64,000 nt of DNA, taken from the NCBI GenBank assembly GCA_964608275.1, contig CAZSNL010000001.1:9088-73087 (forward strand), given 5' to 3'. A model generated the notes under the pieces. That model was not told where the DNA came from. It worked only from the letters and a program-made list of their open reading frames with translations, and did not search any database. The stretch is from an uncultured Hyphomicrobiales bacterium (GTDB lineage Bacteria > Pseudomonadota > Alphaproteobacteria > Rhizobiales > CAZSNL01). The translations under genes were made by a program, and so were the position numbers. Positions 6,325 to 30,053 of the stretch are shown in pieces (the first letter of the stretch is position 1; each line of letters begins with the position of its first letter).

Positions 6325-6327
6325 GCG

Positions 6328-14971: not shown

Positions 14972-15084
14972 CGGGTGGCAAAAAAAAGCTGCCCGACAAT
15001 GACTTGCCGAGGCAGCGAGGTCTCCATGAGAAGCCACCATTCTCCGTTACCGGCTCTGCGGTACAAGCGGGCAGACAGACGACA

Positions 15085-16695
15085 ATGACGTCCGAAGGGG
15101 TTAGTATGTCCCCCGAAAGTATCGGGGATCCTGCGCCCGAGCATTCGCGCAGCGCGGATCTGCCGCTCCCGCCGGGAATGACCATGAGCGAAGCTGCCGG
15201 TCTGTTCGAGATCCTCGCCAATTACACGTATGACTGGGAAACGTGGTTTTCGCATACCGGCGCGGTGCGCTGGATAAACCCTGCGGTCGAGCGGATGACT
15301 GCATACTCGCCGGCGGAATGTCTCGCCATGGCGGACTATCCGTTGCCGCTGATTCACGAACAGGACCGCGAGGCTTTCCGGGCGCTCCTCGCGTCGGCGC
15401 TGTCGGGCAGCAGCGGCAACGATGTCGAGTTCCGTTTCCTGCGCAAGGACGGCAGCTTCGGCTGGGGCGCCGTGTCGTGGCAGCCGGTCCGCGCCGAGGG
15501 GGTCGGATCGCTGGGCTTCCGCACCAGCATCCGCGACATCACGAAGCGCAAGAGTGCCGAAGACGCGCTCAGACTGGCAAAGGCGGAGTCGGAGAAGGCC
15601 AACCTGGACAAGAGCCGGTTCCTGGCTTCCGTGAGTCACGACCTGCGCCAGCCGCTGCAGGCAATCTCGATGTACGTGGGCGCGCTGCGCCACAGGCTCG
15701 AAGGTGAGAAGGAGCGGATGCTTCTCGATGACGTGCGGCTTTGCCTCGCCAACTGCAACGAGCTGCTCGACGACCTCGTCGACATCTCCAAGCTCGATGC
15801 CGGGGTGGTCGTCGCGCAGCCGAAGGACTTCGCCCTGGCCGATGTGTTCGAGACGATCGAGACGAGTTTCCGGTCGTCGGCGCGCGAAAAGGGGCTCGAC
15901 CTGAGGGTCGTGGCGACGAGCCTCTACGTGCACTGCGATCTCACGATGCTGACCCGTATCCTGCAGAATCTCGTCTCGAATGCGATCCGCTACACGGAGA
16001 CCGGGCGCGTGCTGGTCGGATGCCGGCGACGCGGCGACAAGGTGGCGCTCGAAGTCTGGGATACCGGCATCGGCATCAGCGAGGATCAGCTGGAGCACGT
16101 ATTCGAGGAGTTCTTCCAGATCGGCAACCCCGGCCGCGACCGCCGCCGCGGCATCGGGCTCGGCCTCGCCATTGTTCGCCGGCAGGCGCGACTGATGGGG
16201 ACCGAAGTCGCGGTCAGGTCGACACCCGGAAAGGGTTCGGTCTTCCGGGTCGAGGTCCCGCTCGCCACGTCCGTAAGCCCGGTTACCGAGACCGAGCCTG
16301 CAATCTGCCACCACAGCATTGTCGACGGGTTGAGCATCGTCGTGATCGATGACGAGCCGGTGCAACTCGACGCAATCGCGTCCTTCCTGACTATCAACCG
16401 GGCAAAGGTCATTGCGGCGGCGTCGGCAGAGGACGCGCTCCGGCATCTCGATGATCCCGGTGCGTCGAGACTGTCGGTCATCGTCGCCGACTACAGGCTC
16501 GCCGACGGCACGTCCGGGGTACAGGCGATCGCAGCCATTCGCGAACGCCTGGGCGCCAGAGTCCCGGCCATCATCATCACCGGCGATATCGAACCGCAGC
16601 GGATTGCCGATGCCGACGCAAGCGGATGCGTGCTCCTGCACAAGCCGGTGGAGCCCGCCACGCTTCTGAAATTCATAGCCGAGTGCGTCGACTGA
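15085..16695 (+). CDS. hybrid sensor histidine kinase/response regulator with N-terminal PAS domain, no obvious transmembrane segment
   Basis: PAS-like WINPAVERMTAYSPAECL...FRFLRKDGSFGW, H-box FLASVSHDLRQPL, G-boxes DTGIGI and GIGLGLAIV, and a C-terminal receiver (VVIDDEP...VIVADYRLADG...HKP). The start is uncertain (15085 or 15106). Confidence 0.85.
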   Translation: MTSEGVSMSPESIGDPAPEHSRSADLPLPPGMTMSEAAGLFEILANYTYDWETWFSHTGAVRWINPAVERMTAYSPAECLAMADYPLPLIHEQDREAFRALLASALSGSSGNDVEFRFLRKDGSFGWGAVSWQPVRAEGVGSLGFRTSIRDITKRKSAEDALRLAKAESEKANLDKSRFLASVSHDLRQPLQAISMYVGALRHRLEGEKERMLLDDVRLCLANCNELLDDLVDISKLDAGVVVAQPKDFALADVFETIETSFRSSAREKGLDLRVVATSLYVHCDLTMLTRILQNLVSNAIRYTETGRVLVGCRRRGDKVALEVWDTGIGISEDQLEHVFEEFFQIGNPGRDRRRGIGLGLAIVRRQARLMGTEVAVRSTPGKGSVFRVEVPLATSVSPVTETEPAICHHSIVDGLSIVVIDDEPVQLDAIASFLTINRAKVIAAASAEDALRHLDDPGASRLSVIVADYRLADGTSGVQAIAAIRERLGARVPAIIITGDIEPQRIADADASGCVLLHKPVEPATLLKFIAECVD

Positions 16696-16704
16696 TCGCG
16701 TGCC

Positions 16705-17379
16705 TCAGGGCGCGCGGGTGCGCAGCGGACGCGGCCAGCCGAGATCCGCGGCGATGAGGGCAGCCTGGGTTCGGTTGCTGGCGCCGAGCTTCTTCAGGAT
16801 CACCTTCACGTGCGCCTTGACCGTGCTCTCCAGCAGGCCGAGGCTACGCGCGATCTCCTTGTTGGACTGTCCCTCGACCATCAGGGCGAGGGTGTCGCGC
16901 TGGCGATTGGTGAGCTGCTTAAGCGGGTTGGTGTCGGGCAGATGCTCAAGCCCCGGCGTGTGCTCGCCGGGGCCGCTACGAATGCGCGCGACAACTTCGG
17001 ACGGCATGAAGATCTCGCCGGCGAGCACCAGTGCGATCGCGTGGCGCAAAACCGTTTCGGTCACGGATTTCGGTATGTAGCCCCGTACTCCGAGATCGAT
17101 GCATTCAAGGATCTCGTCGCAATCCACATGCGCCGACAGCATGATCACCGGCGTCGCCGGGCGGCGTGCCGCGAACCGGCGCACACCGGCGACCCCGTTC
17201 ATGCCGGGCATCGCAAGGTCGAGGAATATGATGTCGAACGGCTCGGAGGCTTCGAGGATGTCCCACGCCTGGCCGGCGTCGCCGGCGCCGACCAGTTCGG
17301 CATCGGGAAAGAGTTGCGACAGCATGAGCTTGAGCCCGCGCCGGAACAACGCATGATCGTCGGCGACGAGTATTCTCAT
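16705..17379 (-). CDS. NarL/FixJ (LuxR-type HTH) family response regulator
   Basis: Receiver MRILVADDHALFRRGL...IIFLDLAMPGMNG. C-terminal LTNRQRDTLALMVEGQSNKEIARSLGLLESTVKAHVKVILKKLGASNRTQAA. Confidence 0.9.
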   Translation of the reverse strand: MRILVADDHALFRRGLKLMLSQLFPDAELVGAGDAGQAWDILEASEPFDIIFLDLAMPGMNGVAGVRRFAARRPATPVIMLSAHVDCDEILECIDLGVRGYIPKSVTETVLRHAIALVLAGEIFMPSEVVARIRSGPGEHTPGLEHLPDTNPLKQLTNRQRDTLALMVEGQSNKEIARSLGLLESTVKAHVKVILKKLGASNRTQAALIAADLGWPRPLRTRAP

Positions 17380-17572: not shown

Positions 17573-18217
17573 TCAGCGGCGGTCGCCGGAGCGGCCGCGC
17601 ACCTTGTCCAGCGTCTTGCCTATCCTCGCCTGGGCCGCCTTCAGGTCGTCGATGTCGCCGGCCATGAAGACGCGGCCGGAAGCGCCGATCATCTGCACGT
17701 CGACCAGGGTGGCCCCGGGGGCGGCCCGTTCCGCCTCGTTGGCGGCAACCGCCGCAAACAGCGCCGGCGCCATTTCGTAGAGCAGCAGGGACTGACCCGG
17801 CAGGACCATCGAGGCCTCTCGCGACCGGTTGAGGATCACCGCATGCTGGTCGGAGATCTCCTCCACGATGTCGGTATAGAGCGTCTTCGGCTTGAGCTGG
17901 TGCTCCGGTTTGGCGCCGATGCCGGCGAGGATCGCCGTACCGGCCGCCTCCAGCCTGTCCCGGTCGGTCGAATGGAGCTCAAGGACACCGAACTGGCGCT
18001 CGGTGAACAGGATGCCGGGCTCGAGATCCGGTGCGGCCTTCAGGGCGAGGTCGACGATCCGGTGAATCGACAACGCCGGAGCCACCTCGATGATCAGGCT
18101 GTGATCGCCCTCGAAGGGAGGATAGCCACGGGCGCGCATGGGCGATGACAGATAGGCCGAGAACTGCGGTTGCAGGTCCTCGATCGGCAGATATACGCGC
18201 AGTTCGGTCATTGCCAT
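17573..18217 (-). CDS. BMC shell protein with two BMC-like domains (tandem, BMC-T class candidate)
   Basis: 214 aa. First repeat RIVDLALKAAPDLEPGILFTERQFGVLELHS. Second repeat AAVAANEAERAAPGATLVDVQMIGASGRVFMAGDIDDLKAA. It is a paralogue of ORF 19301..19912 and the last gene of the shell block. Confidence 0.75.
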   Translation of the reverse strand: MAMTELRVYLPIEDLQPQFSAYLSSPMRARGYPPFEGDHSLIIEVAPALSIHRIVDLALKAAPDLEPGILFTERQFGVLELHSTDRDRLEAAGTAILAGIGAKPEHQLKPKTLYTDIVEEISDQHAVILNRSREASMVLPGQSLLLYEMAPALFAAVAANEAERAAPGATLVDVQMIGASGRVFMAGDIDDLKAAQARIGKTLDKVRGRSGDRR

Positions 18218-18266
18218 GCAGCGTTTCCGTCAGCCGTTCCGCCGGTTCGGTCCGCGGGCGGGCCCA

Positions 18267-18548
18267 CTATTTCGAGGCGGCAGCAAAGTGCTTGCCGAGA
18301 TCGGGGTGCGGGCGCGGGATGACGTGGACGGAGACAAGTTCGCCGACCTGGTTGGCCGTTTCGGCCCCGGCTTCCGTCGCGGCCTTCACCGCACCGACAT
18401 CGCCGTTGATGATGACGGCGACGAGGCCGTCCCCGACCTGTTCCCGGCCCACGATGGTCACGTTGGCCGCCTTGACCATCGCGTCGGCCGCCGCGAGCGC
18501 GGCAACGTAGCCCTTGGTCTCGATCATTCCGATAGCATTCTGCGCCAT
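18267..18548 (-). CDS. BMC-H hexameric shell protein (PduA/EutM/CcmK-like)
   Basis: [63 protein letters not shown]...VHVIPRPH is a canonical single BMC domain. Confidence 0.9.
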
Positions 18549-18605
18549 TTCACTTCTCCTCGATTTGCCGCGAGTCCTCGCAGCGTTCTGGCTGGCAATA
18601 GCCGT

Positions 18606-18854
18606 TCATCGTCCGGCCGGTTCATCGATGGAGCCGACGATGAGGGCGTCGACAGGAGCCGGTGCCGGAAAATAGCTGGCCGCGACCGACCCCTGGGCGA
18701 CCAGCACGCTTTCACCGATCCCGCATCCCAGCGGGTCGAAGGCGATGAGGCGGGAACCGTTGTCCAGTTCGATTTCGAGCAACGCTCCCTGGGGCAGGCT
18801 CGAAATCCGCTTGGTCGACCAGATGCGGCCGGCAACACGTCCACGAACCATCAC
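18606..18854 (-). CDS. BMC-P pentameric vertex protein (EutN/CcmL family)
   Basis: (M)MVRGRVAGRIWSTKRISSLPQGALLEIELDNGSRLIAFDPLGCGIGESVLVAQGSVAA is the EutN/CcmL pattern. The GTG at 18854 overlaps the upstream stop (GTGA); an ATG at 18851 is an alternative. Confidence 0.85.
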   Translation of the reverse strand: MMVRGRVAGRIWSTKRISSLPQGALLEIELDNGSRLIAFDPLGCGIGESVLVAQGSVAASYFPAPAPVDALIVGSIDEPAGR

Positions 18855-19297
18855 GCGCTCCTTTCGATCTCGATACCGCGCTTGCGAGCCAGATCTCGGG
18901 CGAGCGGTGACAGCCGGACCCGCTTGCCGATCACGATCCTGCGCGTTCCCGGCGGCAGGGCGTTGATCTGCCGCTCGGCAACGAGACCGCGGTCGAAACG
19001 GGCCACCTCCGACACCGCCGCGGCCCCGGTGGTGGCGATGGGGGTGCTGAGCGTTGCGCCGCCGGAAAGGCGGAACACCCAGCGTCCCTCCTCGATCTCG
19101 CGCCGGGCCGTGCCATCGGCCGCCAGTGCCAGGATCCGGTGAACGAAGCGCATGAGATCACCGTCGGATCGCAGGGTAACCGTCTCCTCGCGGATCTGCC
19201 GGCGTGGCGTGTTCTCGCGCGGATGGTGCGCACGCAGCCGGCTCAGCTCCTCGGCGAGGATCTCACGCACCATCATCCTGATGTCGCCCGACGCCAT
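18851..19297 (-). CDS. uncharacterised BMC-locus protein with an N-terminal encapsulation-peptide-like amphipathic helix
   Basis: 148 aa wedged between shell genes: a 3-nt gap upstream and a 4-nt overlap downstream. N-terminus IRMMVREILAEELSRLRA resembles the AldDH C-terminal helix. The C-terminal string RRIVIGKRVRLSPLARDLARKRGIEIE recalls the short ...TPLARD..GI.I module seen on some BMC-associated proteins (from memory). Confidence 0.6.
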   Translation of the reverse strand: MASGDIRMMVREILAEELSRLRAHHPRENTPRRQIREETVTLRSDGDLMRFVHRILALAADGTARREIEEGRWVFRLSGGATLSTPIATTGAAAVSEVARFDRGLVAERQINALPPGTRRIVIGKRVRLSPLARDLARKRGIEIERSA

Positions 19298-19300
19298 CGG

Positions 19301-19912
19301 CTAACCCACCCCGAGTTCCTTCAGTGCGTCCTCCGCCGCGTCACGCGCATTGCGGATCTCGGCTTCGTCGCCCGAGAGATAGACGCGACCGGTCGCGCCG
19401 ATCAGGCGCAGGTCGACGACCTTGATGGTGGCTGCCTTTTCCGCCTCGTTGGCGGCTATCACCGCATACGAGGCCGGCTGCATCTCGAGTACGTAGAGCG
19501 ATTCCCCGCCGAGGATCATCGAGCCCAGCTTGTTGCGATTGATCAGGAAGGCGTGACTGTGATCGACGCGCGTGATGATCCGTGATGCGAGCACCACCGG
19601 CCGCGTTGCATCCTCTGCCCGTGCACCCAGCGCATCCAGCACGGCATCGGCCGAGGCCTTCACCGCCGCGGTCGAGCGGGAGTGAAACTCCAGGTACCCG
19701 AACTGGCGTTCGACCACCAGGATGCCGGATTTCACCTCGGCATGCTTGAGGGCGACATCCGTCAGGGCCTCGATGTCCAGCCCAGGAGCGACCTCAATGA
19801 TCTGCGCCGCCATGTTGGAGCGCGGCAGGCTGCCGCGCATCCAGGTGCCCAGATAGCACATCGTCTGCGGCTGCAGCTGATCGATGAAGATGAAGGACCT
19901 CAGCTCCGCCAT
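19301..19912 (-). CDS. BMC shell protein with two BMC-like domains (tandem, BMC-T class candidate)
   Basis: MAELRSFIFIDQLQPQTMCYLGT...IIEVAPGLDIEALTDVALKHAEVKSGILVVERQFGYLEFHS, plus a second repeat VIAANEAEKAATIKVVDLRLIGATGRVYLSGDEAEIRNA. The ATG at 19912 is 1 nt from the AldDH stop, with a GAAGGAA Shine-Dalgarno. Confidence 0.8.
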   Translation of the reverse strand: MAELRSFIFIDQLQPQTMCYLGTWMRGSLPRSNMAAQIIEVAPGLDIEALTDVALKHAEVKSGILVVERQFGYLEFHSRSTAAVKASADAVLDALGARAEDATRPVVLASRIITRVDHSHAFLINRNKLGSMILGGESLYVLEMQPASYAVIAANEAEKAATIKVVDLRLIGATGRVYLSGDEAEIRNARDAAEDALKELGVG

Positions 19913-19913
19913 G

Positions 19914-21488
19914 TCATTCCTTCAAGGCAGCCCGCAATTCCTCGACGATGATCCGGCGGATCTCTTCCCTCATCGCATCGTCGTCCCTGCGTCGGGGCGA
20001 CGAGGGTGCGCCGAGCGGCTCGCGTCGCGTTTCACCGGGCACGCCGTCCGATGGCGCCTTCGGCAACGGCCCCTGCAGGTGCATCCTCGCGGTCTCGAAG
20101 GCAGCCATCGCTTCGCCTGGCTCGCTCGAATGAGCGATCCGCGTCCAGTGCACGAGATGCTGCGGGCCGATGTTCTCGCCGATCGAAGAGCGACCGAAGT
20201 ATCCCGTTCCCACCGTGAAGCTGGGCGCAAGGTAGGTTCCGTAGCCGGCCGCGCCCTGGCTGCAAGGCGCATTCACGACAACGCGGTAAGCCTCCACGGT
20301 GGAGCCGAAATCCAGGATCGTCTGCGCATTGCGGCTGTGGATCGCGGCAGAATGGCCGGCGCCCGAACTGCGAAGCAGTGCGCGCGCCTGGGCGATCGCA
20401 TCCTTGATGGTCCTTGCGACATAGTACCCGAGCACCGGGCACAGCTTCTCGCGCGACAGCTTTTCGCCGAAGCCGATGGTCTGTATCGGCGCCACAAGGA
20501 TCCGCGTCTTCGGCGGGACCTTGAATCCCGCTTCCGCCGCCACCCATGCCGCGTCGCGGCCCACCGACTCGACGTTGAAACCGCGTTCGTGGAAGAGGTA
20601 GCGGCGCAGGAGGTCACACTCGTCCTCGGAGCAGATGTGTGCGCCCGCCTTTTCCAGCTCGCGGACCAGCGATCCGGCAATCGATTCGACGGCGATCAGC
20701 ACCGACTCGTTGGTGCAGAGAATGGAATTGTCGAACGACTTCGACTCGACAATCCTTTCGGCGGCCTTCCTGAGGTCGGCGGTATCGTCGACCACGACCG
20801 GCGCGTTGCCGGGGCCGACGCCGATTGCCGGATTGGACGAGGAGTAGGCCGCCCGCACCATCGCGTTACCGCCGGTGGCGAGGATGACGTCGGTCTTGTC
20901 CGAGCGCATGTACTCCTCGATCAGCGGAATGGTCGGCCGTTCCACGACCTGTATCGCGGCTTCCGGAGCGCCGGCCTCTTCCGCCACCGATGCGAGATAG
21001 CGGGCGGCATGGACGCAGCATTCGCGCGCCGCCGGGTGCGGTGACAGGACCACGGCGTTGCGCGTCATCAGCGAAATCAGCGTCTTGAAGTTGACGGTGG
21101 CGATGGGATTGGTCGACGGCGTGAGCGCGAACACGACGCCGGCAGGCCGCGGCAATTCGACGATGCGCCGGTCGGCGTCGATCCGCGGATTGACGAAATC
21201 CCAGGATCGATAGTGATCGGCCAACGGCTTCGAGGTGAGGCGGTTCTTGATCGTCTTGTGCTCGACCACGCCGAAGCCGGTCTCGCGCACCGCCCATTCG
21301 GCATAGAAGGCCGCCTTCTCCTCGGCCGCCTCGGCCACCGCGTCGACAATCCGCTGGGTGTCCTCCCGGCCGTACCGCCGGAATGTCTCGCTGGCCCAGC
21401 GGGCCCGCTCGAGAACGATTTCCGCTGTCGAGCGACGGGCAGCGGGCGTATCGGAAATGTCGACCAGGGTGCGGATCTGCGGGTCCAT
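19914..21488 (-). CDS. CoA-acylating aldehyde dehydrogenase (PduP/EutE class) with Pro/Ser/Arg linker and C-terminal encapsulation-peptide-like helix
   Basis: The ATG at 21488 (MDPQIRTLV) overlaps the upstream stop (ATGA). Core strings FALTPSTNPIATV, ILATGGNAMVRAAYSSSNP, SFDNSILCTNESV (catalytic Cys context). The tail is ...PLPKAPSDGVPGETRREPLGAPSSPRRRDDDAMREEIRRIIVEELRAALKE. The 706-aa track ORF is an artefact of an open upstream frame. Confidence 0.9.
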   Translation of the reverse strand: MDPQIRTLVDISDTPAARRSTAEIVLERARWASETFRRYGREDTQRIVDAVAEAAEEKAAFYAEWAVRETGFGVVEHKTIKNRLTSKPLADHYRSWDFVNPRIDADRRIVELPRPAGVVFALTPSTNPIATVNFKTLISLMTRNAVVLSPHPAARECCVHAARYLASVAEEAGAPEAAIQVVERPTIPLIEEYMRSDKTDVILATGGNAMVRAAYSSSNPAIGVGPGNAPVVVDDTADLRKAAERIVESKSFDNSILCTNESVLIAVESIAGSLVRELEKAGAHICSEDECDLLRRYLFHERGFNVESVGRDAAWVAAEAGFKVPPKTRILVAPIQTIGFGEKLSREKLCPVLGYYVARTIKDAIAQARALLRSSGAGHSAAIHSRNAQTILDFGSTVEAYRVVVNAPCSQGAAGYGTYLAPSFTVGTGYFGRSSIGENIGPQHLVHWTRIAHSSEPGEAMAAFETARMHLQGPLPKAPSDGVPGETRREPLGAPSSPRRRDDDAMREEIRRIIVEELRAALKE

Positions 21489-22753
21489 CAGACTGCGCGC
21501 CTCCTGGTTCCCATGACCTCCGCGCTTGCCTTGCCGATGGCGACCTCCACCCGCCGCAGGAGGTCCTCGCACAGCGACTGGGTCATCAGGATGCCCGGCT
21601 TGAACTGCAGCACGCGCGGGTCGAGGGTCGAGAAGATCGCCCACACACCGTTCTCGTAAAGATGACGCATGACCGGCTTGGCGCCTTCGGGATGGTTGAA
21701 CTCCAGGCCCATCACCACCCCGTGCTGGCGGATGCCGACGAAGAAGTCCGGATAGAGATCGCGTATCTCGTCGAGGCCGGCGCGAATGAAGTCGGAGACG
21801 TAGCGGACCGTCGAGACGACCTCCGGGCGCTGGCAGATCTCCAGCACTTTCATCGCGACGATGCAGCCGATCTCCGCGCCACCCGCGGTGGACATGTGGG
21901 CAAACCCGTCTTCCTCGAGCCAGCCACCGTGGCGTTCGGAGACGACGCAGCAGGCAATGGGATAAAGCCCGCCGGTGATGCCCTTGCCGGTCACCAGGAT
22001 GTCGGGTTCGACGCCGTACCGCGTGATGCCCCACATGGCGCCGGTCCGCATGAGCCCGGTCTGGACCTCGTCGGCGATGTAGAGCGAACCATACCGTTCA
22101 CAGAGCTTCTTGACGCCCGGCAGGTAACCCTCCTGCGGCATCGGGAAGCCGTAGGTCGCCGGTATCGTCTCCATGATCACGGCGGCGACGTCGCGGCCGC
22201 GCAACGCGTCCTCCATCGCGTCGAGGTCGTTGAACGGCACCTGGATGAACTCGCCCTCGCGGTCCTCCGACAAAAACAGCTTGGAGAACCGCGGATCGCC
22301 GGTCTTGACCGCAAGGCCGGTGTGGCCGTGGTAGGCCTTGATGATCGAGACGATCCGGCGACGCTTGGTCGAGTGCCGCGCGGTCTTCAGGGCGAGGTCG
22401 ATGGCCTCGGCACCGCCGGCGCCATACATCGTGTAGGTCAGGTCGCCCGGGGTGCAGGCGGCAAGCGCTTCGGCCAGCGCGGTGCGCGCCAGCGAGGGGA
22501 AGTGGTGGTTCCCCATGTCGAAATGCCGGGTCGCGGCGTTCATCACCTCGACCAGCTCGGGATGGCGGTGCCCCAGGTTGTAGGTGCCGCCATTGAGATG
22601 GACGTCGTACAGCCGACGGCCATCCATGTCGTACAGGAAGTAGCCCTCGCGACGATCGATCACGAGGTCGACGCCCGCCTCCTGCCAGAACCGGGTCTTC
22701 CCGGGGTTCCAGAACGCTTTCGAGCGTTCGAGAAACTCTGCCTTCTCGATCAC
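21488..22753 (-). CDS. class-III aminotransferase-fold PLP enzyme; predicted amino-alcohol O-phosphate phospho-lyase by locus context
   Basis: GTG at 22753 with GGGAG upstream. LYIADEVQTGLMRTGAMWG and DILVTGKGITGG (PLP-Lys context) are class-III aminotransferase strings. The phospho-lyase role is inferred from neighbours only. Confidence 0.8.
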   Translation of the reverse strand: MIEKAEFLERSKAFWNPGKTRFWQEAGVDLVIDRREGYFLYDMDGRRLYDVHLNGGTYNLGHRHPELVEVMNAATRHFDMGNHHFPSLARTALAEALAACTPGDLTYTMYGAGGAEAIDLALKTARHSTKRRRIVSIIKAYHGHTGLAVKTGDPRFSKLFLSEDREGEFIQVPFNDLDAMEDALRGRDVAAVIMETIPATYGFPMPQEGYLPGVKKLCERYGSLYIADEVQTGLMRTGAMWGITRYGVEPDILVTGKGITGGLYPIACCVVSERHGGWLEEDGFAHMSTAGGAEIGCIVAMKVLEICQRPEVVSTVRYVSDFIRAGLDEIRDLYPDFFVGIRQHGVVMGLEFNHPEGAKPVMRHLYENGVWAIFSTLDPRVLQFKPGILMTQSLCEDLLRRVEVAIGKASAEVMGTRRRAV

Positions 22754-22800
22754 TGACCGCTCCCTGCTGCAATCCTCTTAGAAGGGATCGCCGTCAGACG

Positions 22801-22834
22801 CTTGACAGGTCACCGGAGCAACTTGACATCGCGC
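22801..22834. promoter_or_regulatory. bipartite direct repeat CTTGACAG-N13-CTTGACATCGCGC (copy A), 48 nt upstream of the aminotransferase-fold gene
   Basis: CTTGACA occurs at 22801-22807 and 22822-22828 (21-bp period), followed by TCGCGC. The same 8+13 nt core is found at 28804-28837. Confidence 0.55.
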
Positions 22835-22842
22835 ATCGGGGA

Positions 22843-23862
22843 TCAGGCGAAGCGACTGAGGTAGTCTTCCGCAAGCTCACAGGACACTCTCGTGAAATGC
22901 GGGGCCTGTTCCTGGGCCAGGTCCGTTTCGCTGTGCGAGCCGATCCACGCCAGCAGGCACATACGACGCAGCATCACGAACGTCGGGATTTCGTCCACGT
23001 CGGCCTTCGGAAGGTCCCGGACGGTGCGATAGCCGCGCAGCCAGGCATCGATGAGGTTGGGGACCTGGGGATTGTCCTCGATGAACGACAGTGCGGTTGC
23101 GACGTCGTACATGAACCAGCCGAATCCGGAGTCGTCGAAATCGATGACGCGCGTCTCGTCGCCGTCGATCAGCAGGTTGGCGAGCCGGATGTCGGCGTGG
23201 ATGAGGTTGTAGCGATCGGGCGCCTTCCCATACGCGGCAAGCCGGCGGCGTATCACGTCCTCCTGGCGCTGCAGGATGGCTTGTGCCTCGCGGTCCATGT
23301 TCGGGGCCTCACGCCAGTCGCCCCAGTTCGGCGTCGCGCCGATGGTGTGATCGAAATCCCAGATCAGGCGCTCGAAGTTGTCTGGCCGTTTCCAGCCCAT
23401 GGCATGCAGATGCAGGCGGGCCGAAACCGCGCCCAGCCGTTCGAACGGCTTCGTCAGGTCCTGGCTTTCGTCCGGTTCGACCCCTTCGACGAACTCGAAC
23501 ATCACCATGTACCGCGGCCGTGGCAGCCCCGGGACCTGGCCACGCTGGATGAGATTGCCGTCGCGGCCGGGAATGGCGGGCGGCGTCTCGACGCCGCCCT
23601 CCTCGCGCAACGCCTTCATCCATGCCAGCTCGCAGGCGATCGCGTTGCGGGTGTGATAGTCCTCGCGGTGAATGCGCAGGACCGTTCGCCGCCCGGAGGT
23701 CATCTCCACCAGGTAGGTGGCGTTTTCCGACAGGTTGATCAGCCGGGTGGTGGCGCCGTCCTCGACATCCCAGAGCGGCAGCGAGGCATCCGCGAGCCGG
23801 GCGAGATTGTCGAGAAGCGCCGCATGGTCCTCCGCGGGCGGTGGCTGGGTATGGGTATCCAT
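22843..23862 (-). CDS. aminoglycoside phosphotransferase (APH)-fold kinase; predicted amino-alcohol (1-amino-2-propanol) kinase by context
   Basis: The ATG at 23862 gives MDTHTQPPP... APH/choline-kinase signatures: LIHADIRLANLLIDGDETRVIDFDDSGFGWFMYD (HxD...N...IDFDD). Confidence 0.85.
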   Translation of the reverse strand: MDTHTQPPPAEDHAALLDNLARLADASLPLWDVEDGATTRLINLSENATYLVEMTSGRRTVLRIHREDYHTRNAIACELAWMKALREEGGVETPPAIPGRDGNLIQRGQVPGLPRPRYMVMFEFVEGVEPDESQDLTKPFERLGAVSARLHLHAMGWKRPDNFERLIWDFDHTIGATPNWGDWREAPNMDREAQAILQRQEDVIRRRLAAYGKAPDRYNLIHADIRLANLLIDGDETRVIDFDDSGFGWFMYDVATALSFIEDNPQVPNLIDAWLRGYRTVRDLPKADVDEIPTFVMLRRMCLLAWIGSHSETDLAQEQAPHFTRVSCELAEDYLSRFA

Positions 23863-23897
23863 GACGTTTTCCTCGTCCTGCACCGATCCGGGGCGCA

Positions 23898-24677
23898 TCA
23901 GGCCTCGGCCAGTGCCTCGATCGATTCGGGCAGTATCTGTCCGCCGTCGACGACGAGCGTCTGTCCGGTGATGTAGCCCGCTTCATCGGTGGCGAAGAAC
24001 AGCGCCGCGTTGCCGATGTCCTCGACGGCACCCAGCCGCTTGAGCGGGATGGAAGCCGCCATCGTGTCCAGGTATTCCTGACCCAGCCCCTCGAGCCCTT
24101 CGGTGATGATGTTGCCGGGCATGACGGCGTTGATGGTGATGTTGTACCGGGCCAGTTCCATGGCCGCCGTCTTCAGGAACCCGAGCTGGCCGGCCTTCGA
24201 GGCGGCGTAATGGGTCCAGCCGGGATAGCCGGTGATCGGACCGGTGATCGACGAGGTGATGATGATGCGGCCCTTGCCGCGGCGCTGCATCGCCGGGACC
24301 GCCGACCGGACCGAGAGGAACGTGCTCTTCAGGTTCGTGTTCAGGACGTGGTCCCAGTCATCCGGACCCATTTCGAGTAATTTGGTCTGCGGAAAGATGC
24401 CGGCATTCGCACACAGGATGTCGAGGCCGCCGAACTCGGCTTCGGTGCGCTCGACAAGGGCCTCGATCTGGTCGGGTTGGGTGACGTCACATGCACACCA
24501 TGCCGCCTTGCCGCCGGCTGCCTTCAGTTCGTCGACCGTGCGTTCGGCATCGGCCTGGCCGCGGGCGGCGATCATCACGTTCGCGCCGGCATTGGCGAAG
24601 ACGCGGGCGATTCCCTTGCCGATGCCCTTCGAACCGCCTGTAACGATGGCAGTACGGCCGGCGATAGACTTGAACAT
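23898..24677 (-). CDS. SDR family NAD(P)-dependent oxidoreductase (FabG-like); candidate aminoacetone/aminopropanol oxidoreductase by context
   Basis: [12 protein letters not shown] (TGxxxGIG), NAG, and the catalytic YAASKAG (YxxxK). Confidence 0.9.
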
Positions 24678-24704
24678 CAGTACCTCCTTGGGGTTCGTGC
24701 GACA

Positions 24705-25514
24705 TTAATCGGATGAAACGGCGCCGGCGCGCCGGCTCATCCACCAGGAAACTCCAATGACGATGACGGTGAGTACGGCCGAGGCGGCCACCATCAGGGT
24801 GCCGACCGCCGGCACCAGCGGCGAGTAGCCGGAGACCATCTTGGCGTAGAGCCATTCCGGCAGCGTGGAGTCGGCGCCGGTGGTAAACAGCGACAGCGGG
24901 AAATTGCCCCACGACAGCAGGAATGCGAACGCGCCGGCGGCGACCACGCCGGGCCACAGAAGCGGCAACGTGACCTCGCGGAGCACCTGCCAGCCGCTTG
25001 CGCCCATGTCGCGGGCTGCCTCTTCCAGCGCCGGGTCGAACCCGAACGCGCGGATGGCGATGATGAGCGTCGCGATCGGCGCGATCCATACGAGATGGGC
25101 GACGATGGCGGTGTGCCAGGTCGGGATGATGCCCACCGCGTTGAACCACATCAGCAGGGCGAGCCCGAGCACCGCCTGCGGGAAGAAGATCGGCAGCAGG
25201 ATGAACTTCTGGAAGACGCCGCGGAAGCGCCAGCGGTAGCGGGCGAAGGCGAGGGCGCCGAAGAAGCCAACGATGACGGCGATCACGGTGACCGAAACGG
25301 CGATCTTCAGCGAGGTCAGGGTGAACTCGCGGACGGTGTAGGACGTGACCGCGTCGGCGTACCAGTCGGCGGTGTAGCGCTTGATCGGGAACGAGAGGTA
25401 CCGTGCCCTCGAGAACGACGCGAGGGTGACCGCAAGGATCGGCAGGTACAGGAAGGCGAGTATCAGGCCCCCGTAGACGTAGTAGGCAAGGCGCTCGGAG
25501 CGGGATCGTGTCAT
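24705..25514 (-). CDS. ABC transporter permease (PotC/PotI-like)
   Basis: The ATG at 25514 gives MTRSRSERLAYYVYGGLILAFLYLPIL... EAA-loop-like EEAARDMGASGWQVLREVTLPLLWPG. Confidence 0.85.
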   Translation of the reverse strand: MTRSRSERLAYYVYGGLILAFLYLPILAVTLASFSRARYLSFPIKRYTADWYADAVTSYTVREFTLTSLKIAVSVTVIAVIVGFFGALAFARYRWRFRGVFQKFILLPIFFPQAVLGLALLMWFNAVGIIPTWHTAIVAHLVWIAPIATLIIAIRAFGFDPALEEAARDMGASGWQVLREVTLPLLWPGVVAAGAFAFLLSWGNFPLSLFTTGADSTLPEWLYAKMVSGYSPLVPAVGTLMVAASAVLTVIVIGVSWWMSRRAGAVSSD

Positions 25515-25516
25515 CG

Positions 25517-26368
25517 CTATCTCCGCCCCATGATCCCGTCGAGGTCGATGCGCGACAGGGCGACGAACGCCAACGCACCGATGATCGCGATCAGCGATAC
25601 CGACAGCGCCGATCCCAGGGGCCAGTTCTGGCCGTAGGTGAACGCCCGCTCGATCTCGTCGGCGATGACGATGACGGCGCGGCCGCCGAGCAGCTTGGAT
25701 TCGGCGATCGCCCCGGCGGCGAGGACGAAGGTCAGCAGGCAGCCGACGACGATGCCCGGCATCGCGAGCGGAAGATCGATCTCCCACAGGATCCGCCACC
25801 GCGATGCGCCGAGATCGCTCGCCGCCTGGCGCACCTCCTCGGGGATCATTGCCAGTCCCTGCAGCAGCGGAAACAGCATGAACGGCAGGTACACGTAGAC
25901 GAGACCGAACACGATGATCGGCGTGTTGTAGGTCCAGCCCTCGAGGACGATCCCGGTCCACGACTGGACGTAGCCGCCGATCAGCCCCCCCTTCATCAGG
26001 GTGAGCACCCAGCCGTACAGCCGGATGTTCTCGGACACGATCAGCGTCAGCACGATGGCGATGACGATCACCAGGGAGAAGCGGCCGAAGACCCTCGTCA
26101 TCGCGTGGGCGAGCGGATAGCAGACGAGGAACAGGATCGCCGTCGCGAGCGCGGCCATGGCCAGCGACCAGGCGAGCGAACGCCAGTAGCCCTGTTCGAC
26201 GAACACGCGATAGGCCTCGAACGTGGGCGAATGGGCGAACGTGAACACCCGTTGCGGCATGATCGAGAACACCGCGATGACGACCAGCGGCGCAACGAAG
26301 ATCAGGACCATCAGGACCGTCATCGGCAACGATGACAGCAAGCCCTGACGTGCCTCCAGCCGGTCCAT
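25517..26368 (-). CDS. ABC transporter permease (PotB/PotH-like)
   Basis: The ATG at 26368 gives MDRLEARQGLLSSLPMTVLMVLIFVAPL... EAA loop RQAASDLGASRWRILWEIDLPLAMPG. It starts 1 nt after the ATPase stop. Confidence 0.85.
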   Translation of the reverse strand: MDRLEARQGLLSSLPMTVLMVLIFVAPLVVIAVFSIMPQRVFTFAHSPTFEAYRVFVEQGYWRSLAWSLAMAALATAILFLVCYPLAHAMTRVFGRFSLVIVIAIVLTLIVSENIRLYGWVLTLMKGGLIGGYVQSWTGIVLEGWTYNTPIIVFGLVYVYLPFMLFPLLQGLAMIPEEVRQAASDLGASRWRILWEIDLPLAMPGIVVGCLLTFVLAAGAIAESKLLGGRAVIVIADEIERAFTYGQNWPLGSALSVSLIAIIGALAFVALSRIDLDGIMGRR

Positions 26369-26369
26369 C

Positions 26370-27449
26370 TCAGCCCTCCAGGTCGTCGGCGAGCAGATGG
26401 GTCGAGGCGAGGTCGAAGCCGAGCCGGAGCTCGCTTCCGCCGTTGCCGGCAAGCTGGTCGTCGCGCAGTTTCTCGACGGTGATGGAACGGTCGCCGACGA
26501 GGACGTCGTAGTGAATGCGCGAACCGAGCTCGAAGGTCTCGCGCAGCTGGCCGGTCATGGTGCAGTCGGCATGCTGGCCGGCGGCCAGGAACCGGACCGA
26601 CTCGGGGCGGACCATGAGCAGCGCGCGCTCGCCCTCGGCGAGGCCGAGGCTGCCGTTGGCCACCGTGATCGGCAGGTCGACCCCACGGAAGCCGCCGTTG
26701 CCGTCGCCTTCCACCCGGAACAGATTGACCTCGCCCATGAACTCGGCGACGAACCGGGACCGGGGCGCCGCGTAGATCTCGGCTGCCGTGCCGACCTGAG
26801 CGATGCGGCCGGCGCGCATGATCGCGATGCGGTCGGACATCACCATCGCCTCCTCCAGCGAGTGGGTGATGTAGACGAACGTCCGGCCGGTGCGGCGGTG
26901 GAGCTCCTTGAGCTCCTTCTGGAGCTCCTTGCGAAGCCGGTAGTCGAGCGCCGACAGCGGCTCGTCGAAGAACAGGATCTGCGGGTCGAACGCCAGCGCG
27001 CGGGCGAGCGCGACGCGTTGCCGCTCGCCGCCGGAGCACTGGGTGACGCGCTTGCCGTAGTAGTTTCTCGGCAGCCGCAGGAGATCGAGAAGCTCCAACG
27101 CGCGGGCCTGCCGGTCAGCCGGCGGCACCCCCTTGATCTTCAAGGGAAACTCGATGTTCTGCCCGACCGTGCGATGGGGGAACAGCGCCAGCGACTGGAA
27201 CACCATGCAGGTCGGCCGCCGGTTGGCCGGGACGTGGTTGATGACCTCGTCGTGGAGATAGATCCGACCTTCGGTCGGCTCGTCCATGCCGACCAAGAGG
27301 CGGATCATCGTCGTCTTGCCGGATCCGGACGGTCCGACGATGGTGAGGAACTCGCCCTCCCGGATATCGAGGTCTATTCCGTCTATTGCCGTAAAATTGC
27401 CGAAGCGCTTGCTGACGCTGTCGAGTCGCAGCACGACCTTGGACGACAT
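26370..27449 (-). CDS. ABC transporter ATP-binding protein (PotA/spermidine-putrescine type, with C-terminal TOBE-like domain)
   Basis: Walker A GPSGSGKTT, CSGGERQRVALARALAFDPQILFFDEPLSALD, YITHSLEEAM. Confidence 0.9.
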   Translation of the reverse strand: MSSKVVLRLDSVSKRFGNFTAIDGIDLDIREGEFLTIVGPSGSGKTTMIRLLVGMDEPTEGRIYLHDEVINHVPANRRPTCMVFQSLALFPHRTVGQNIEFPLKIKGVPPADRQARALELLDLLRLPRNYYGKRVTQCSGGERQRVALARALAFDPQILFFDEPLSALDYRLRKELQKELKELHRRTGRTFVYITHSLEEAMVMSDRIAIMRAGRIAQVGTAAEIYAAPRSRFVAEFMGEVNLFRVEGDGNGGFRGVDLPITVANGSLGLAEGERALLMVRPESVRFLAAGQHADCTMTGQLRETFELGSRIHYDVLVGDRSITVEKLRDDQLAGNGGSELRLGFDLASTHLLADDLEG

Positions 27450-27523
27450 TCGTGAAACCCCAGGACAACGCCCCCGGTGCCGCGGAAGCTACAATGCGGG
27501 TGAACGGCGCACTTGCAGAGGGA

Positions 27524-27558
27524 AGGGGCCGGACGTGATCGCGGGCGTCGCGGCCCCT
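27524..27558 (-). other. GC-rich stem-loop immediately after the substrate-binding-protein gene (intercistronic attenuator/stabiliser candidate)
   Basis: On the minus-strand RNA: AGGGGCCG-C-GACG-(10 nt)-CGTC-CGGCCCCU, 12 paired positions with one bulge. It starts 7 nt after the stop at 27565 and has no U-tract. Confidence 0.4.
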
Positions 27559-27564
27559 GCCGGA

Positions 27565-28695
27565 TCAGCCCCGCCGAGCGGCGTTGTAAATCTCGATCAG
27601 CCGGTCATAGTCGGCGACAACGCCGTACTCGACGCAGCGGTCGATGTCCTCCTCAAGTTCGCTCCACTGGATGGCCTCGAGTTCCTCCTCGTCAAACTTC
27701 TCCATGACGTCCTCACGCCCCATCTGCGACACGGGGTTGTACGTTCCTTCCGAGAAGGCCACCGCCTTGCAGATGTCGGGTTCGTTGATGAAATGGAGGA
27801 AGTCCTCGGCGAGGGGACTGGGGTTGGGGTTGTTGACGAGTGACGTCAGTTCCACCCACACGATCCCGCTCTTGCCGTCCACCGGGCCGGAACGCGGCGT
27901 GATGGCCCGCACCTGCGTCTGGCCGTCATAGCGGGCTGGAGAGGCCGTATAGACACCGCCGGTGAAATAGGCGTCGATCTCGCCGTTGATGAGCGCGGTA
28001 TTCATGGTGACGAGATCTTCGCTGGCAAGGGTCGCCCCGCCGAAGATCTGCCTGGCGACCTCCTCGAAGCGGGATTCGCCGTCATCCGGCATCGGTTCGA
28101 ACGGATTGAGGTCGGCCGCCATGCACATGTGCATGATGTTCCAGTTGTCGTAGGTCAGCACCCCGTATTTCTTGTTCATCGACGGGTCGAGGAACAACTT
28201 GAAGCCCTGATCCTCCGCCATTTCCTGCGAGATCTTCTCGGTGTTGACCACGAACGAGAAGGGGCCGAAGCGCTGCACCATCCCGAGCAGGTGCTCGCCG
28301 GATTCGTCGTACGCCAGCGGGTAGTTCTGGAATGCCGGAAGCATGTCCTTGAAGTAGCCCTCGAACGCAGCCTTATCCATCGGCCGGATCAGGCCCTCCG
28401 GGTACATCCGCTGGCGTGCCCACGGCTGGTTGACGTTGATCAGGTCCCAGACGTTGACTTCGCCGGCGCGCAGCTTGTTGATCATGTCGGGATCGGAGGT
28501 GCCGCTTTCGGCGCGAACCGTGGCGCCCGGATGCCTTTCCCGGAACGGGCCCAGCACCTGATCGGTGTTGTAGCCCTCCCAGCACAGGATGTTCATTTCG
28601 TTTTCCCGCTGTGCCCAGGCACTGCGCGGCAATCCCATCGCGCTGACACCTGCCAGAGCGGCAGTTCCCTTCAGGAACGATCTGCGGTCAGCCAT
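27565..28695 (-). CDS. ABC transporter periplasmic substrate-binding protein (PotD/PotF family), Tat signal
   Basis: The ATG at 28695 is preceded by GGAGGAGGAGGA. Twin-arginine signal MADRRSFLKGTAALAGVSAMGLPRSAWA. The body matches family-1 solute-binding proteins of the polyamine type. Confidence 0.85.
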   Translation of the reverse strand: MADRRSFLKGTAALAGVSAMGLPRSAWAQRENEMNILCWEGYNTDQVLGPFRERHPGATVRAESGTSDPDMINKLRAGEVNVWDLINVNQPWARQRMYPEGLIRPMDKAAFEGYFKDMLPAFQNYPLAYDESGEHLLGMVQRFGPFSFVVNTEKISQEMAEDQGFKLFLDPSMNKKYGVLTYDNWNIMHMCMAADLNPFEPMPDDGESRFEEVARQIFGGATLASEDLVTMNTALINGEIDAYFTGGVYTASPARYDGQTQVRAITPRSGPVDGKSGIVWVELTSLVNNPNPSPLAEDFLHFINEPDICKAVAFSEGTYNPVSQMGREDVMEKFDEEELEAIQWSELEEDIDRCVEYGVVADYDRLIEIYNAARRG

Positions 28696-28803
28696 TCTCC
28701 TCCTCCTCCCAGCTATCGGGCGACAGGCAACACGTTGCGCCGCGGTCGCCAACGTGAGCTCCGTGCCAGAACCCGATAGTATCGAAGGAAGGCGGGCGGA
28801 CGG

Positions 28804-28837
28804 CTTGACAGTAGCCGACACGATCTTGACATCGCGC
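28804..28837. promoter_or_regulatory. bipartite direct repeat CTTGACAG-N13-CTTGACATCGCGC (copy B), between the AraC gene stop and the ABC importer
   Basis: CTTGACA occurs at 28804-28810 and 28825-28831 (21-bp period), followed by TCGCGC. It lies 109 nt upstream of the SBP start. A -10-like TACTAT (minus strand, 28776-28781) sits 23 nt downstream. Confidence 0.55.
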
Positions 28838-28863
28838 CGGCGGCGTGGCCGGCGGGAGTGCGG

Positions 28864-29922
28864 TCACGCCATGGCACGATCCCGCTCGGCGGCCGCCCGC
28901 CGGTATCTCTGTGGCGACATGCCCGTCCACAATCGGAACGCGCGACTGAAGGCGGACAGCTCCGAATACCCGAGCGCAAGGGCAGCCTCGGTGAGGCTTA
29001 TGTCGGGATCGGCGACATAGCGCAGGGCGAGTTCCTGGCGCGCGGCCCGTACGATGTCGTTGAACGAGGCACCGTGTTCCTTGAGCCGTCGCTGCAAGGT
29101 GCACGGCGTCATGCCGAAGCGCTCTGCAACGCCCTTCAGCGTGGGCGCATTCGGCGTTCCCAGTTCCAGTTTCACATGGTGCCGCAAAAGCTGGACGAAA
29201 TCCTGCGGCACCGCCCGGCTGGCGCGCCGGTGGGCGAGATATTCCGAAATGAGAACATGCAGATACGGGTCGGCGTTGGGCATGATGGTGTCCGCATCGG
29301 ACTTGCGGAGCGCAATGGCATTGGCGCGCTGGGAGAAGATGACTGGGGCGCCGAAACGGCGCTCGTGTTCCGCCGGATCAAGCGGTGCGGAATGCTCGAA
29401 ATGTATCTCCAGGGGCCGCCAGTCCCTGCCCAGTCCATGCCTGAGAATGTTGAGGAACATCCCGAGTGACAGTTCGGCGTCCTGCCGACGCGAAGGGATG
29501 CGCTTGTCGATGATCTGATAGGAGAGCCATAGAAGCCCGTCATCTTCCGACAGCGTGAGTATGCTGTTGTCCTGGTGAGCCGGGAAGTACCGCACGAGAT
29601 TGGCCAGCGCGGAGAAGACGGTAGGTGAATTTATCGCGACGTAGCCGATCGGACCGAGACGCTGGGGGGCGAAATCATCGCCGAACCGCAGTCCGAAATT
29701 GTCGTTTCCCGTCTGCCTGGCCGCTTCCTCGAACAGCGCGCAGAACTGCGTCAGATCGAGCTCGTTATAGGGGCTCTCCAAGATCCGCTCGTCTATCGAG
29801 GCCCTGGCGAAGATCGCGCCGACGTCTCCATGGTCGCGGGCGATCGCGTCCGCCACGCCGTTGGCGGCCGCCGCCAGAACCTTCGGCGGCAAGAACTCGG
29901 AGATATCTGAATTCCCGGACAT
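28864..29922 (-). CDS. AraC family transcriptional regulator with N-terminal ligand-binding-type domain
   Basis: The C-terminal double HTH reads LKGVAERFGMTPCTLQRRLKEHGASFNDIVRAARQELALRYVADPDISLTEAALALGYSELSAFSRAFRLWTGMSPQRYR. Confidence 0.85.
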   Translation of the reverse strand: MSGNSDISEFLPPKVLAAAANGVADAIARDHGDVGAIFARASIDERILESPYNELDLTQFCALFEEAARQTGNDNFGLRFGDDFAPQRLGPIGYVAINSPTVFSALANLVRYFPAHQDNSILTLSEDDGLLWLSYQIIDKRIPSRRQDAELSLGMFLNILRHGLGRDWRPLEIHFEHSAPLDPAEHERRFGAPVIFSQRANAIALRKSDADTIMPNADPYLHVLISEYLAHRRASRAVPQDFVQLLRHHVKLELGTPNAPTLKGVAERFGMTPCTLQRRLKEHGASFNDIVRAARQELALRYVADPDISLTEAALALGYSELSAFSRAFRLWTGMSPQRYRRAAAERDRAMA

Positions 29923-30024: not shown

Positions 30025-30053
30025 ATTATAGACAAGCTCCGCTCCGGTGTCAT
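30025..30053 (-). promoter_or_regulatory. near-consensus sigma70-type promoter pointing at the AraC gene
   Basis: On the minus strand: -35 ATGACA (30048-30053), a 17-nt spacer, then -10 TATAAT (30025-30030). It lies about 100 nt upstream of the AraC start and stands out in a GC-rich background. Confidence 0.45.

Follow-up and report, generated by a model that had tools for sequence, protein, structure and literature searches.

Gene content, conserved repeat and predicted working of an RMM2/AAUM2-type microcompartment locus in an uncultured Hyphomicrobiales bacterium

The 64,000-nucleotide stretch of DNA analysed here (positions 9,088 to 73,087 of contig CAZSNL010000001.1, from an uncultured Hyphomicrobiales bacterium; hereafter the window) carries on its minus strand, between positions 17573 and 29922, a block of 14 intact and tightly packed genes spanning approximately 12 kb, as judged from the list of open reading frames (ORFs) and from protein family scans. 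The block encodes an AraC-type regulator, an ATP-binding cassette (ABC) importer, a set of pathway enzymes and the shell proteins of a bacterial microcompartment (BMC). We consider it likely that it is a metabolosome locus of the RMM2/AAUM2 type and that it works in the way set out below. All of its ORFs had already been placed correctly on the minus strand by a first-pass annotation made from the sequence alone. The genes are listed here in the direction in which they are read, with E-values or bit scores of the family matches in brackets.

28864-29922, minus strand: AraC-family regulator (PF12625, Arabinose_bd, 6e-49; PF12833, HTH_18, 6.7e-21)
27565-28695, minus strand: predicted periplasmic substrate-binding protein (SBP) with the twin-arginine motif RRSFLK (MADRRSFLK...; TAT_signal, 20.4 bits)
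26370-27449, minus strand: ABC ATPase, PotA-like, with TOBE domain (PF00005, PF08402)
25517-26368, minus strand: ABC permease, PotB-like (PotB 4.1e-40, below cutoff)
24705-25514, minus strand: ABC permease, PotC-like (PotC 2.4e-39, below cutoff)
23898-24677, minus strand: short-chain dehydrogenase/reductase (SDR; adh_short_C2 1.1e-65)
22843-23898, minus strand: kinase of the aminoglycoside phosphotransferase (APH) fold (PF01636 1.4e-28; HxD...N and DFDD motifs intact)
21488-22753, minus strand: class-III aminotransferase-fold pyridoxal phosphate (PLP) enzyme, the signature enzyme and candidate phospho-lyase (PF00202 1.1e-69)
19914-21491, minus strand: CoA-acylating aldehyde dehydrogenase (AldDH) of the EutE/PduP/AdhE-N type (TIGR02518 2e-120; NF010378 1.4e-131)
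19301-19912, minus strand: first BMC-Tdp, a double-stacking tandem-domain shell protein (T1, rmmT1; MSM0275 counterpart; CcmP model 1.6e-65)
18851-19297, minus strand: 148-aa ORF in the position of msmeg_0274 (no Pfam, NCBIfam or PDB match)
18606-18854, minus strand: BMC-P vertex pentamer, EutN/CcmL (MSM0273 counterpart; PF03319 1.1e-17)
18267-18548, minus strand: BMC-H hexamer, PduA/EutM-like (MSM0272 counterpart; PF00936 2.7e-28)
17573-18217, minus strand: second BMC-Tdp (T2, rmmT2; MSM0271 counterpart; CcmP model 2e-52), the last gene of the module

The junctions between these genes are as first described. The lyase and AldDH genes overlap by ATGA (21488-21491), and the 148-aa ORF and the BMC-P gene overlap by GTGA (18851-18854), the latter coupling BMC-P translationally to the 148-aa ORF, while gaps of 1 nt (19913) and 3 nt (19298-19300) lie on either side of T1 and a gap of 89 bp (22754-22842) separates the kinase and lyase genes. 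The G+C content of the locus (0.63-0.66) is close to that of the neighbouring DNA in a window of about 65% overall, so there is no compositional signal of transfer, and recent horizontal acquisition was dropped as a proposal on this ground. An Rfam search of the window for a riboswitch or other RNA element in the locus found one tRNA only, which lies outside the locus.

The relationship of these proteins to those of Mycobacterium smegmatis mc2 155 carries much of the functional assignment. The RMM1/AAUM1 locus of this organism (msmeg_0269-0279) is, to our knowledge, the only system of the kind to have been studied biochemically and structurally. Each of the four shell proteins has its best natural relative in the PDB in the corresponding M. 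smegmatis protein, namely 5L39 (MSM0275, 3.5e-95) for T1, 5SUH (MSM0271, 3.8e-85) for T2, 5L38 (MSM0272, 1.7e-44) for BMC-H and 5L37 (MSM0273, 6e-26, with the second-best match at 6e-6) for BMC-P. Pfam scoring of the shell ORFs, which had been proposed as a check, succeeded for BMC-H (PF00936) and BMC-P (PF03319) and failed for T2 (17573-18217), which does not score with PF00936; judged by its matches to the CcmP model and to 5SUH, T2 is nevertheless clearly a BMC-Tdp, and it is 43% identical to T1. The shell set is therefore the one characteristic of RMM/AAUM loci, with a single BMC-H, a single BMC-P and two BMC-Tdp that differ from each other. No further shell genes, and no second copies of the enzymes, were found within the 64 kb of the window.

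The enzymes give the same picture. The best PDB relative of the SDR is the M. smegmatis (S)-1-amino-2-propanol dehydrogenase (6CI8/6CI9, 1.5e-101, over its full length), and the kinase is closest to the (S)-1-amino-2-propanol kinase of M. smegmatis (6EF6, 3.4e-93), its next PDB match being an amicoumacin kinase at 1e-14. By these matches, both are orthologue-level counterparts of the M. smegmatis enzymes. The gene for the lyase-fold enzyme adjoins that for the acylating AldDH, and the core order lyase-AldDH-T-ORF-P-H-T is that of msmeg_0277 down to msmeg_0271 in the table of Sutter et al. Because of this orthology of the kinase, the SDR and all four shell proteins, the conversion of aminoacetone or 1-amino-2-propanol to propionyl-CoA is well supported as the function of the locus, and the RMM/AAUM-type assignment made in the first-pass annotation holds.

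While the M. smegmatis locus shares with the window the composition of its shell, its core gene order and the absence of a phosphotransacylase and an alcohol dehydrogenase, it differs in other respects. By locus-tag order its SDR and kinase genes follow the shell genes, whereas in the window they lie upstream of the lyase. It also encodes an APC-type amino-acid permease (msmeg_0279) and a GntR regulator where the window has an ABC importer and an AraC regulator, and it includes alpha/beta hydrolases that are absent from the window locus. The features characteristic of RMM1/AAUM1 (GntR, APC permease and hydrolases) are therefore not those of the locus described here.

The nearest described relatives are instead proteobacterial. 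Scanning one genome per species, we identified 545 genomes with a relative of the lyase, of which the best 80 were fetched as loci (L001-L080) and compared with the window by tblastn; counts for the shell proteins and the 148-aa ORF are from 65 evaluable loci, and those for all other genes from 59. The best 80 loci come mostly from Alphaproteobacteria (Rhizobiaceae, Hyphomicrobiaceae, Rhodospirillales, Kiloniellales, Roseovarius, Stappia, Afifella, Fodinicurvata, Dongia and Pacificispira), with additional Gammaproteobacteria and a few others. All best matches are to Proteobacteria and mainly to Alphaproteobacteria, consistent with the early impression that the surroundings of the locus do not look actinobacterial. 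A complete shell is present in 61 of the 65 loci, and the kinase (57/59), the SDR (54/59) and the four-gene ABC importer (51/59) are also kept in most. An AraC homologue lies beside 42 of the 59, divergently oriented in 40 of these and co-directional, as in the window, in two. The commonest pattern is the gene order of the window but with AraC divergent. Nucleotide identity over the locus does not exceed about 74% to any fetched locus, and nucleotide similarity to every other genome ends at about 17585 and 29889, beyond which the flanking genes differ; the module is thus a discrete cassette found in varying contexts.

Loci of this kind have been catalogued. Sutter et al. (2021) list 32 RMM2/AAUM2 loci in Proteobacteria, with Roseovarius nubinhibens as a further example, and 140 RMM1/AAUM1 loci in various Actinobacteria and Proteobacteria (PMC8217296), while Ravcheev et al. 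(2019) also reported the cluster from Actinobacteria, Firmicutes and Proteobacteria (PMC6620236). One of our fetched loci, L043 from Roseovarius litorisediminis CECT 8287 (synonym Pelagicola litorisediminis), provides the link to this catalogue. It is collinear with the window (SBP, ATPase, two permeases, SDR, kinase, lyase, AldDH, T1, small ORF, P, H, T2), AraC gene included. In the published trees, two of its genes carry RMM2 labels, PEL8287_02587 as rmmT1 and PEL8287_02589 as rmmP (PMC8217296). The gene between them, PEL8287_02588, encodes a homologue of the 148-aa ORF. Protein identities between L043 and the window are 47-77%, the catalogued rmmT1 has the same length as T1 of the window (203 aa), and the AldDH ends in the same type of C-terminal peptide. 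Since the window is collinear with this labelled member and its host is proteobacterial, we assign the locus by sequence to the RMM2/AAUM2 subtype, of which the importer and the regulator are ordinary parts. The window locus differs from L043 in its flanks and from most loci in the orientation of AraC, and the nucleotide divergence noted above marks it as belonging to a different, uncultured lineage. Assemblies of NCBI, JGI, ENA and Logan contain proteins identical to those of the window, with as many as 41 contigs carrying them (the longest of 117,696 bp), and the proteins recur in several SRA runs, such as SRR33696299, SRR17041387 and SRR29457795; the organism thus turns up repeatedly in public metagenomes. 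Two scans of metagenome contigs for exact DNA matches were negative.

The first-pass annotation had described the importer as having a Tat-exported, PotD-like binding protein. The export signal stands, in the form of the RRSFLK motif (taking the ATG at 28695 as the start), while the likeness to PotD/F is marginal (PDB 8Y5H, 7.6e-4), and no Pfam or NCBIfam SBP family matches at E<=0.001. Homologues of the SBP are 53-72% identical and collinear in the related loci. The other subunits match the polyamine importer models well below their cutoffs (PotA 1.7e-92, 310 bits against 482; PotB 138 against 348; PotC 135.5 against 326). Judged by these scores, which fall short of the PotABCD/PotFGHI equivalogs, the importer is Pot-like in architecture and is not a Pot orthologue.

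The regulator matches the QhpR model NF049968 at 2.3e-87 (292.8 bits, cutoff 250). QhpR-like proteins are amine-responsive regulators of the AraC type. No gene for a quinohemoprotein amine dehydrogenase was identified among the window ORFs scanned, the regulator gene being linked instead to the BMC locus, and the equivalog name probably over-reaches in this case. Candidate control elements near this gene and within the locus are as follows.

30025-30053, minus strand: sigma-70-like promoter match ATGACA-17-TATAAT (11/12, a consensus match only), some 100 nt upstream of where the AraC gene starts
28804-28831, minus strand: direct repeat TGTCAAG-N14-TGTCAAG in a 21-bp register, between the AraC and SBP genes; candidate operator of an importer-SDR-kinase operon
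28776-28781, minus strand: TACTAT, a -10-like box by the repeat upstream of the SBP gene
22801-22828, minus strand: second copy of the direct repeat TGTCAAG-N14-TGTCAAG, in the 89-bp gap between kinase and lyase; candidate operator and internal promoter of a lyase-AldDH-shell operon
22760-22765, minus strand: ribosome-binding site AGGGAG, in the gap between kinase and lyase

The 64-kb window holds exactly two copies of the repeat, against a chance expectation of 0.01, and both stand on the coding strand of the locus, in its only two sizeable intergenic regions. Allowing at most one mismatch per half-site, we scanned the 80 related loci (1.44 Mb) and found 135 matches, compared with 3-13 in shuffled sequences. 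Overall, 112 of the 135 lie at most 260 nt upstream of, and on the same strand as, the start of the lyase (55), SBP (31) or kinase (26) gene, and at least one such repeat is present in 69 of the 80 loci. Upstream of the lyase, it is found within 220 nt of the start in 56 of 79 loci, at a distance of 51-60 nt in most of these. In loci of the Dongia type, where AraC stands divergently before the kinase, the repeat shifts to that AraC-kinase intergenic region. The consensus is c-TGTCAA(g/a)-tt-N11-c-TGTCAAG-c, with a tAnnnT box some 20 nt further on. A direct repeat in a 21-bp register abutting the -35 element is the classic layout of a class-II activator site of the AraC/XylS family. On the strength of this likeness, we read the repeat as probably the operator of the adjacent AraC-type regulator, and the locus as a pair of transcription units regulated together, importer-SDR-kinase and lyase-AldDH-shell, under its predicted control.

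A second conserved element is a short amphipathic helix that occurs on two proteins of the locus. Beyond residue ~456, the AldDH continues with a linker rich in Pro and Gly and ends in an amphipathic helix, MREEIRRIIVEELRAALKE. The consensus of this helix, LREEIRRIIAEELRAALKG, is found again in virtually all shell-bearing loci. Two loci from metagenome-assembled genomes (MAGs) of Deltaproteobacteria, L058 and L069, encode, as the window does, a lyase (74% identical), an AldDH and an AraC regulator, and L058 has homologues of the kinase (51%) and the SDR (63%) as well. In contrast to the window with its complete shell set, neither locus has shell genes, and the AldDH of both ends without the peptide, so that they act as a natural control for reading the C-terminal helix of the AldDH as a candidate encapsulation peptide.

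The 148-aa protein carries an N-terminal amphipathic helix, IRMMVREILAEELSRLRA, that closely resembles this peptide. The consensus of its family in this region is LRxLIREVLAEEL, and AlphaFold2 models the helix over residues 3-23. In the same model (pLDDT 78.7), two small domains (36-78 and 98-146) are joined by a disordered linker, the first being a small alpha/beta domain and the C-terminal one, of about 45 aa, a beta-alpha-beta domain containing (S/T)PLARD (SPLARD here). A Foldseek search of the PDB with this model yielded no hit better than E 0.09, matching the sequence searches of Pfam, NCBIfam and the PDB, which had also returned no match. The window protein does not match PduM (PF15953) either, while 7 of 26 homologues do so weakly and below cutoff, over their C-terminal ~45 positions only (best E 0.0018). 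The ORF is nevertheless a regular part of the module, being kept in 60 of 65 loci, and same-sized proteins of the family form 891 representative clusters at E<=1e-3 (576 at 1e-10). Neither this ORF nor msmeg_0274 has an entry in the HMM table of the Sutter 2021 catalogue. In one locus from an uncultured gammaproteobacterial MAG (L057, 1659-3562), the AldDH frame runs into a segment that is similar to the 148-aa protein in its C-terminal domain, and BMC-P comes directly after it. No T1, H or T2 was detected there; either the locus has degenerated or been rearranged, or the arrangement is an artefact of assembly.

RMM/AAUM compartments have been proposed to convert aminoacetone to propionyl-CoA (PMC8156839), and the genes described above suggest how the window locus would do so. 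The Tat-exported SBP and the Pot-like transporter would import 1-amino-2-propanol or aminoacetone, the SDR would interconvert aminoacetone and (S)-1-amino-2-propanol, and the APH-fold kinase would form the O-phosphate of the amino alcohol. The aminotransferase-fold PLP enzyme would then remove phosphate and ammonia, acting as a 1-amino-2-propanol O-phosphate phospho-lyase that yields propionaldehyde, NH3 and Pi. The acylating AldDH, in which the catalytic-Cys motif FDNSILC is present and which bears the putative encapsulation peptide, would trap the propionaldehyde as propionyl-CoA. We infer that a shell forms from the one BMC-H, one BMC-P and two BMC-Tdp and that it would house these reactions, including both the aldehyde-forming and the aldehyde-consuming step, with the 148-aa protein, a putative adaptor of the lumen or of assembly that bears a similar N-terminal helix, probably aiding assembly or cargo recruitment. 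The adjacent AraC-type regulator would probably drive expression through the TGTCAAG-N14-TGTCAAG repeats before the two units.

Parts of this scheme are familiar from other systems. In Pseudomonas, aminopropanol kinase and phospho-lyase activities belong to a shell-less pathway. Like the window locus, Pdu and Eut compartments trap an aldehyde with a CoA-acylating AldDH carrying an encapsulation peptide and use a PduA/EutM-like hexamer and an EutN-like pentamer; the product in Pdu is propionyl-CoA, as proposed here, and PduM is the protein to which the C-terminus of the 148-aa homologues bears its weak likeness. However, their signature enzymes are B12-dependent or glycyl-radical enzymes, whereas the window has a kinase-fed PLP enzyme and no phosphotransacylase, alcohol dehydrogenase or reactivase. 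The double-stacking BMC-Tdp found in the window shell is also lacking in classic Pdu1 and Eut1 (PMC8217296).

Several points weigh against the propionyl-CoA scheme or parts of it, the first concerning the PLP enzyme. This protein is 73-86% identical across Proteobacteria and has its PLP-lysine motif. Its closest solved relatives are putrescine and acetylornithine transaminases, since in the PDB it sits nearer to YgjG (6.6e-50; also PigE and ArgD) than to the phospho-lyase ETNPPL (6TOR, 1.3e-28). Clustering with ordinary transaminases had been named in the first-pass annotation as a result that would tell against the assignment, and on this point the sequence goes the wrong way. The lyase role therefore draws on gene context and not on family membership, and the enzyme lies outside the known ETNPPL/AGXT2L phospho-lyase clade, though a phospho-lyase-like working is possible. 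We found no published demonstration of phospho-lyase activity for this protein family. In favour of a lyase are the kinase gene, which adjoins it almost throughout, and the sequence LQFKPG, whose Gln is invariant in 120 of 120 homologues, the shell-less ones included; in 2-oxoglutarate-dependent class-III transaminases, this position is presumably that of the carboxylate-binding Arg.

The SBP is very divergent and has no relatives informative on its ligand, and binding of AraC to the repeat is read from adjacency and repeat geometry. Neither a phosphotransacylase nor an alcohol dehydrogenase was found among the 14 genes or the scanned ORFs of the window, in agreement with the 'incomplete core' by which RMM loci are defined (PMC4207490). 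The pathway would need ATP, PLP, NAD+/CoA and NAD(P)H, and the locus encodes no recycling enzymes; cofactor recycling is a recognised open problem for RMM/AAUM compartments (PMC11626177). Finally, when the termini of the lyase, kinase and SDR were compared with those of shell-less homologues, no encapsulation-type extension was found on any of them, which leaves the entry of the aldehyde-forming step into the shell unexplained. The 148-aa protein could, as a tentative suggestion from its sequence and model, be the missing encapsulation or assembly adaptor, its helix docking to the shell and its domains recruiting the lyase and perhaps the kinase and SDR; if so, it would account for that entry.

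The divergence of the SBP also leaves room for a different substrate. The importer and the kinase-lyase pair might act on a different small amino alcohol, for instance ethanolamine (through phosphoethanolamine to acetaldehyde) or a longer 1-amino-2-alkanol, and the organelle would then trap acetaldehyde or another aldehyde. Consistent with this, the closest NCBIfam matches of the AldDH are to acetaldehyde dehydrogenases. Mallette and Kimber, in 2018, reportedly found the M. smegmatis kinase only 'moderately specific', which would likewise favour a broader substrate range. However, both the kinase and the SDR match the aminopropanol-specific M. smegmatis enzymes far above any other PDB entry, and an aminopropanol dehydrogenase would have no role in ethanolamine catabolism, yet the SDR is kept in nearly all loci. 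We therefore regard a different substrate as unlikely.

The transaminase-like character of the PLP enzyme bears on a further route, in which the enzyme would produce lactaldehyde from 1-amino-2-propanol, or methylglyoxal from aminoacetone, the AldDH would then form lactyl-CoA or pyruvyl-CoA, and the APH-fold protein would act later as a phosphotransferase. Scenarios of this type have been published (Axen 2014, PMC4207490; the 'Aut' of Ravcheev 2019, PMC6620236), and the NCBIfam models that best match the PLP enzyme are, like its nearest structures, those of aminotransferases, although every one of these matches is below cutoff. On the other hand, the orthologue-level match of the kinase to 6EF6 indicates that it acts on the amino alcohol and not on an acyl-CoA, so transaminase routes fit poorly. 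The kinase and lyase genes also adjoin each other in nearly all loci, often with a shared intergenic control region, an invariant Gln stands where transaminases presumably have their carboxylate-binding Arg, and later literature has adopted the propionyl-CoA route (PMC8156839). Taken together, we hold the transaminase route to be quite improbable.

The first-pass annotation had ventured that the ABC importer, AraC regulator and adjacent two-component pair may mark the locus as a proteobacterial variant not, or only poorly, described before. This is very improbable: the catalogue's HMM table does lack ABC and AraC models as well as msmeg_0274, and we found no paper on the importer, regulator or operator, but RMM2/AAUM2 loci are catalogued in Proteobacteria (PMC8217296), the window is collinear with one of them, importer and AraC are standard parts of the module, and the two-component genes lie beyond the point at which similarity to other loci stops. 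The latter genes are a NahK/ErcS-like hybrid histidine kinase (15004-16695, plus strand) and a NarL/LuxR-type regulator (16705-17379, minus strand), which converge with 9 bp between their stop codons. The regulator has no tblastn match (E<=1e-8, over at least half its length) in any of the 80 related loci, so it does not travel with the module, and the histidine kinase gene lies on the opposite strand; we therefore rejected the two genes as part of it. The RMM2/AAUM2 type is, then, already known, and its chemistry had been put forward on the basis of M. smegmatis; the repeat and the 148-aa peptide-bearing protein are modest additions that could help to direct initial experiments on this branch.

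The remainder of the window contains several other recognisable features. A separate cluster on the plus strand (~51353-58339) encodes a GntR regulator, a small B12-binding subunit, a 2-hydroxyacyl-CoA lyase (NF058623, 3.1e-236), an AMP-dependent ligase, a MeaB-like GTPase and the large subunit of an acyl-CoA mutase. It resembles clusters for degradation of the 2-hydroxyisobutyrate type, and no link to the BMC locus was established. A methylmalonyl-CoA-mutase-like gene at 56.5 kb was considered as a downstream route for propionyl-CoA; it is part of this lyase/mutase cluster, and we claim no connection. At 5389-8847 (plus strand), a Ku gene (PF02735) is followed by one for a three-domain LigD (phosphoesterase-ligase-polymerase, 839 aa), the pair of bacterial non-homologous end-joining. 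Between 42000 and 48000, the G+C content falls to 0.59-0.60 over about 6 kb around the sole tRNA gene of the window (46995-47067, plus strand), a segment that was possibly acquired and that is followed by a 1020-aa multi-domain glycosyltransferase (47372-50434). An ORF at 38461-38922 (minus strand) has as its C-terminal half a domain of the hexameric tyrosine-coordinated heme protein family (HTHP, PF11534, 1.8e-35), which is seldom annotated.

These observations indicate that RMM2/AAUM2 is a broadly distributed compartment, with relatives of its signature enzyme in 545 species-level genomes and a full shell in most of the 80 loci compared, and that the module regularly includes an ABC importer, an AraC gene and a small protein without annotation. 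The repeat and the 148-aa protein offer two handles on an organelle that is experimentally untouched, and they bear on cofactor recycling and cargo targeting, both acknowledged open problems of the organelle. Several cultured marine and soil Alphaproteobacteria (e.g. Stappia, Roseovarius, Afifella, Fodinicurvata and Dongia) carry a collinear locus, so these handles can be tested. If borne out, the adaptor and the AraC-type operator would together give the proteobacterial branch of these compartments its first model of assembly and regulation.

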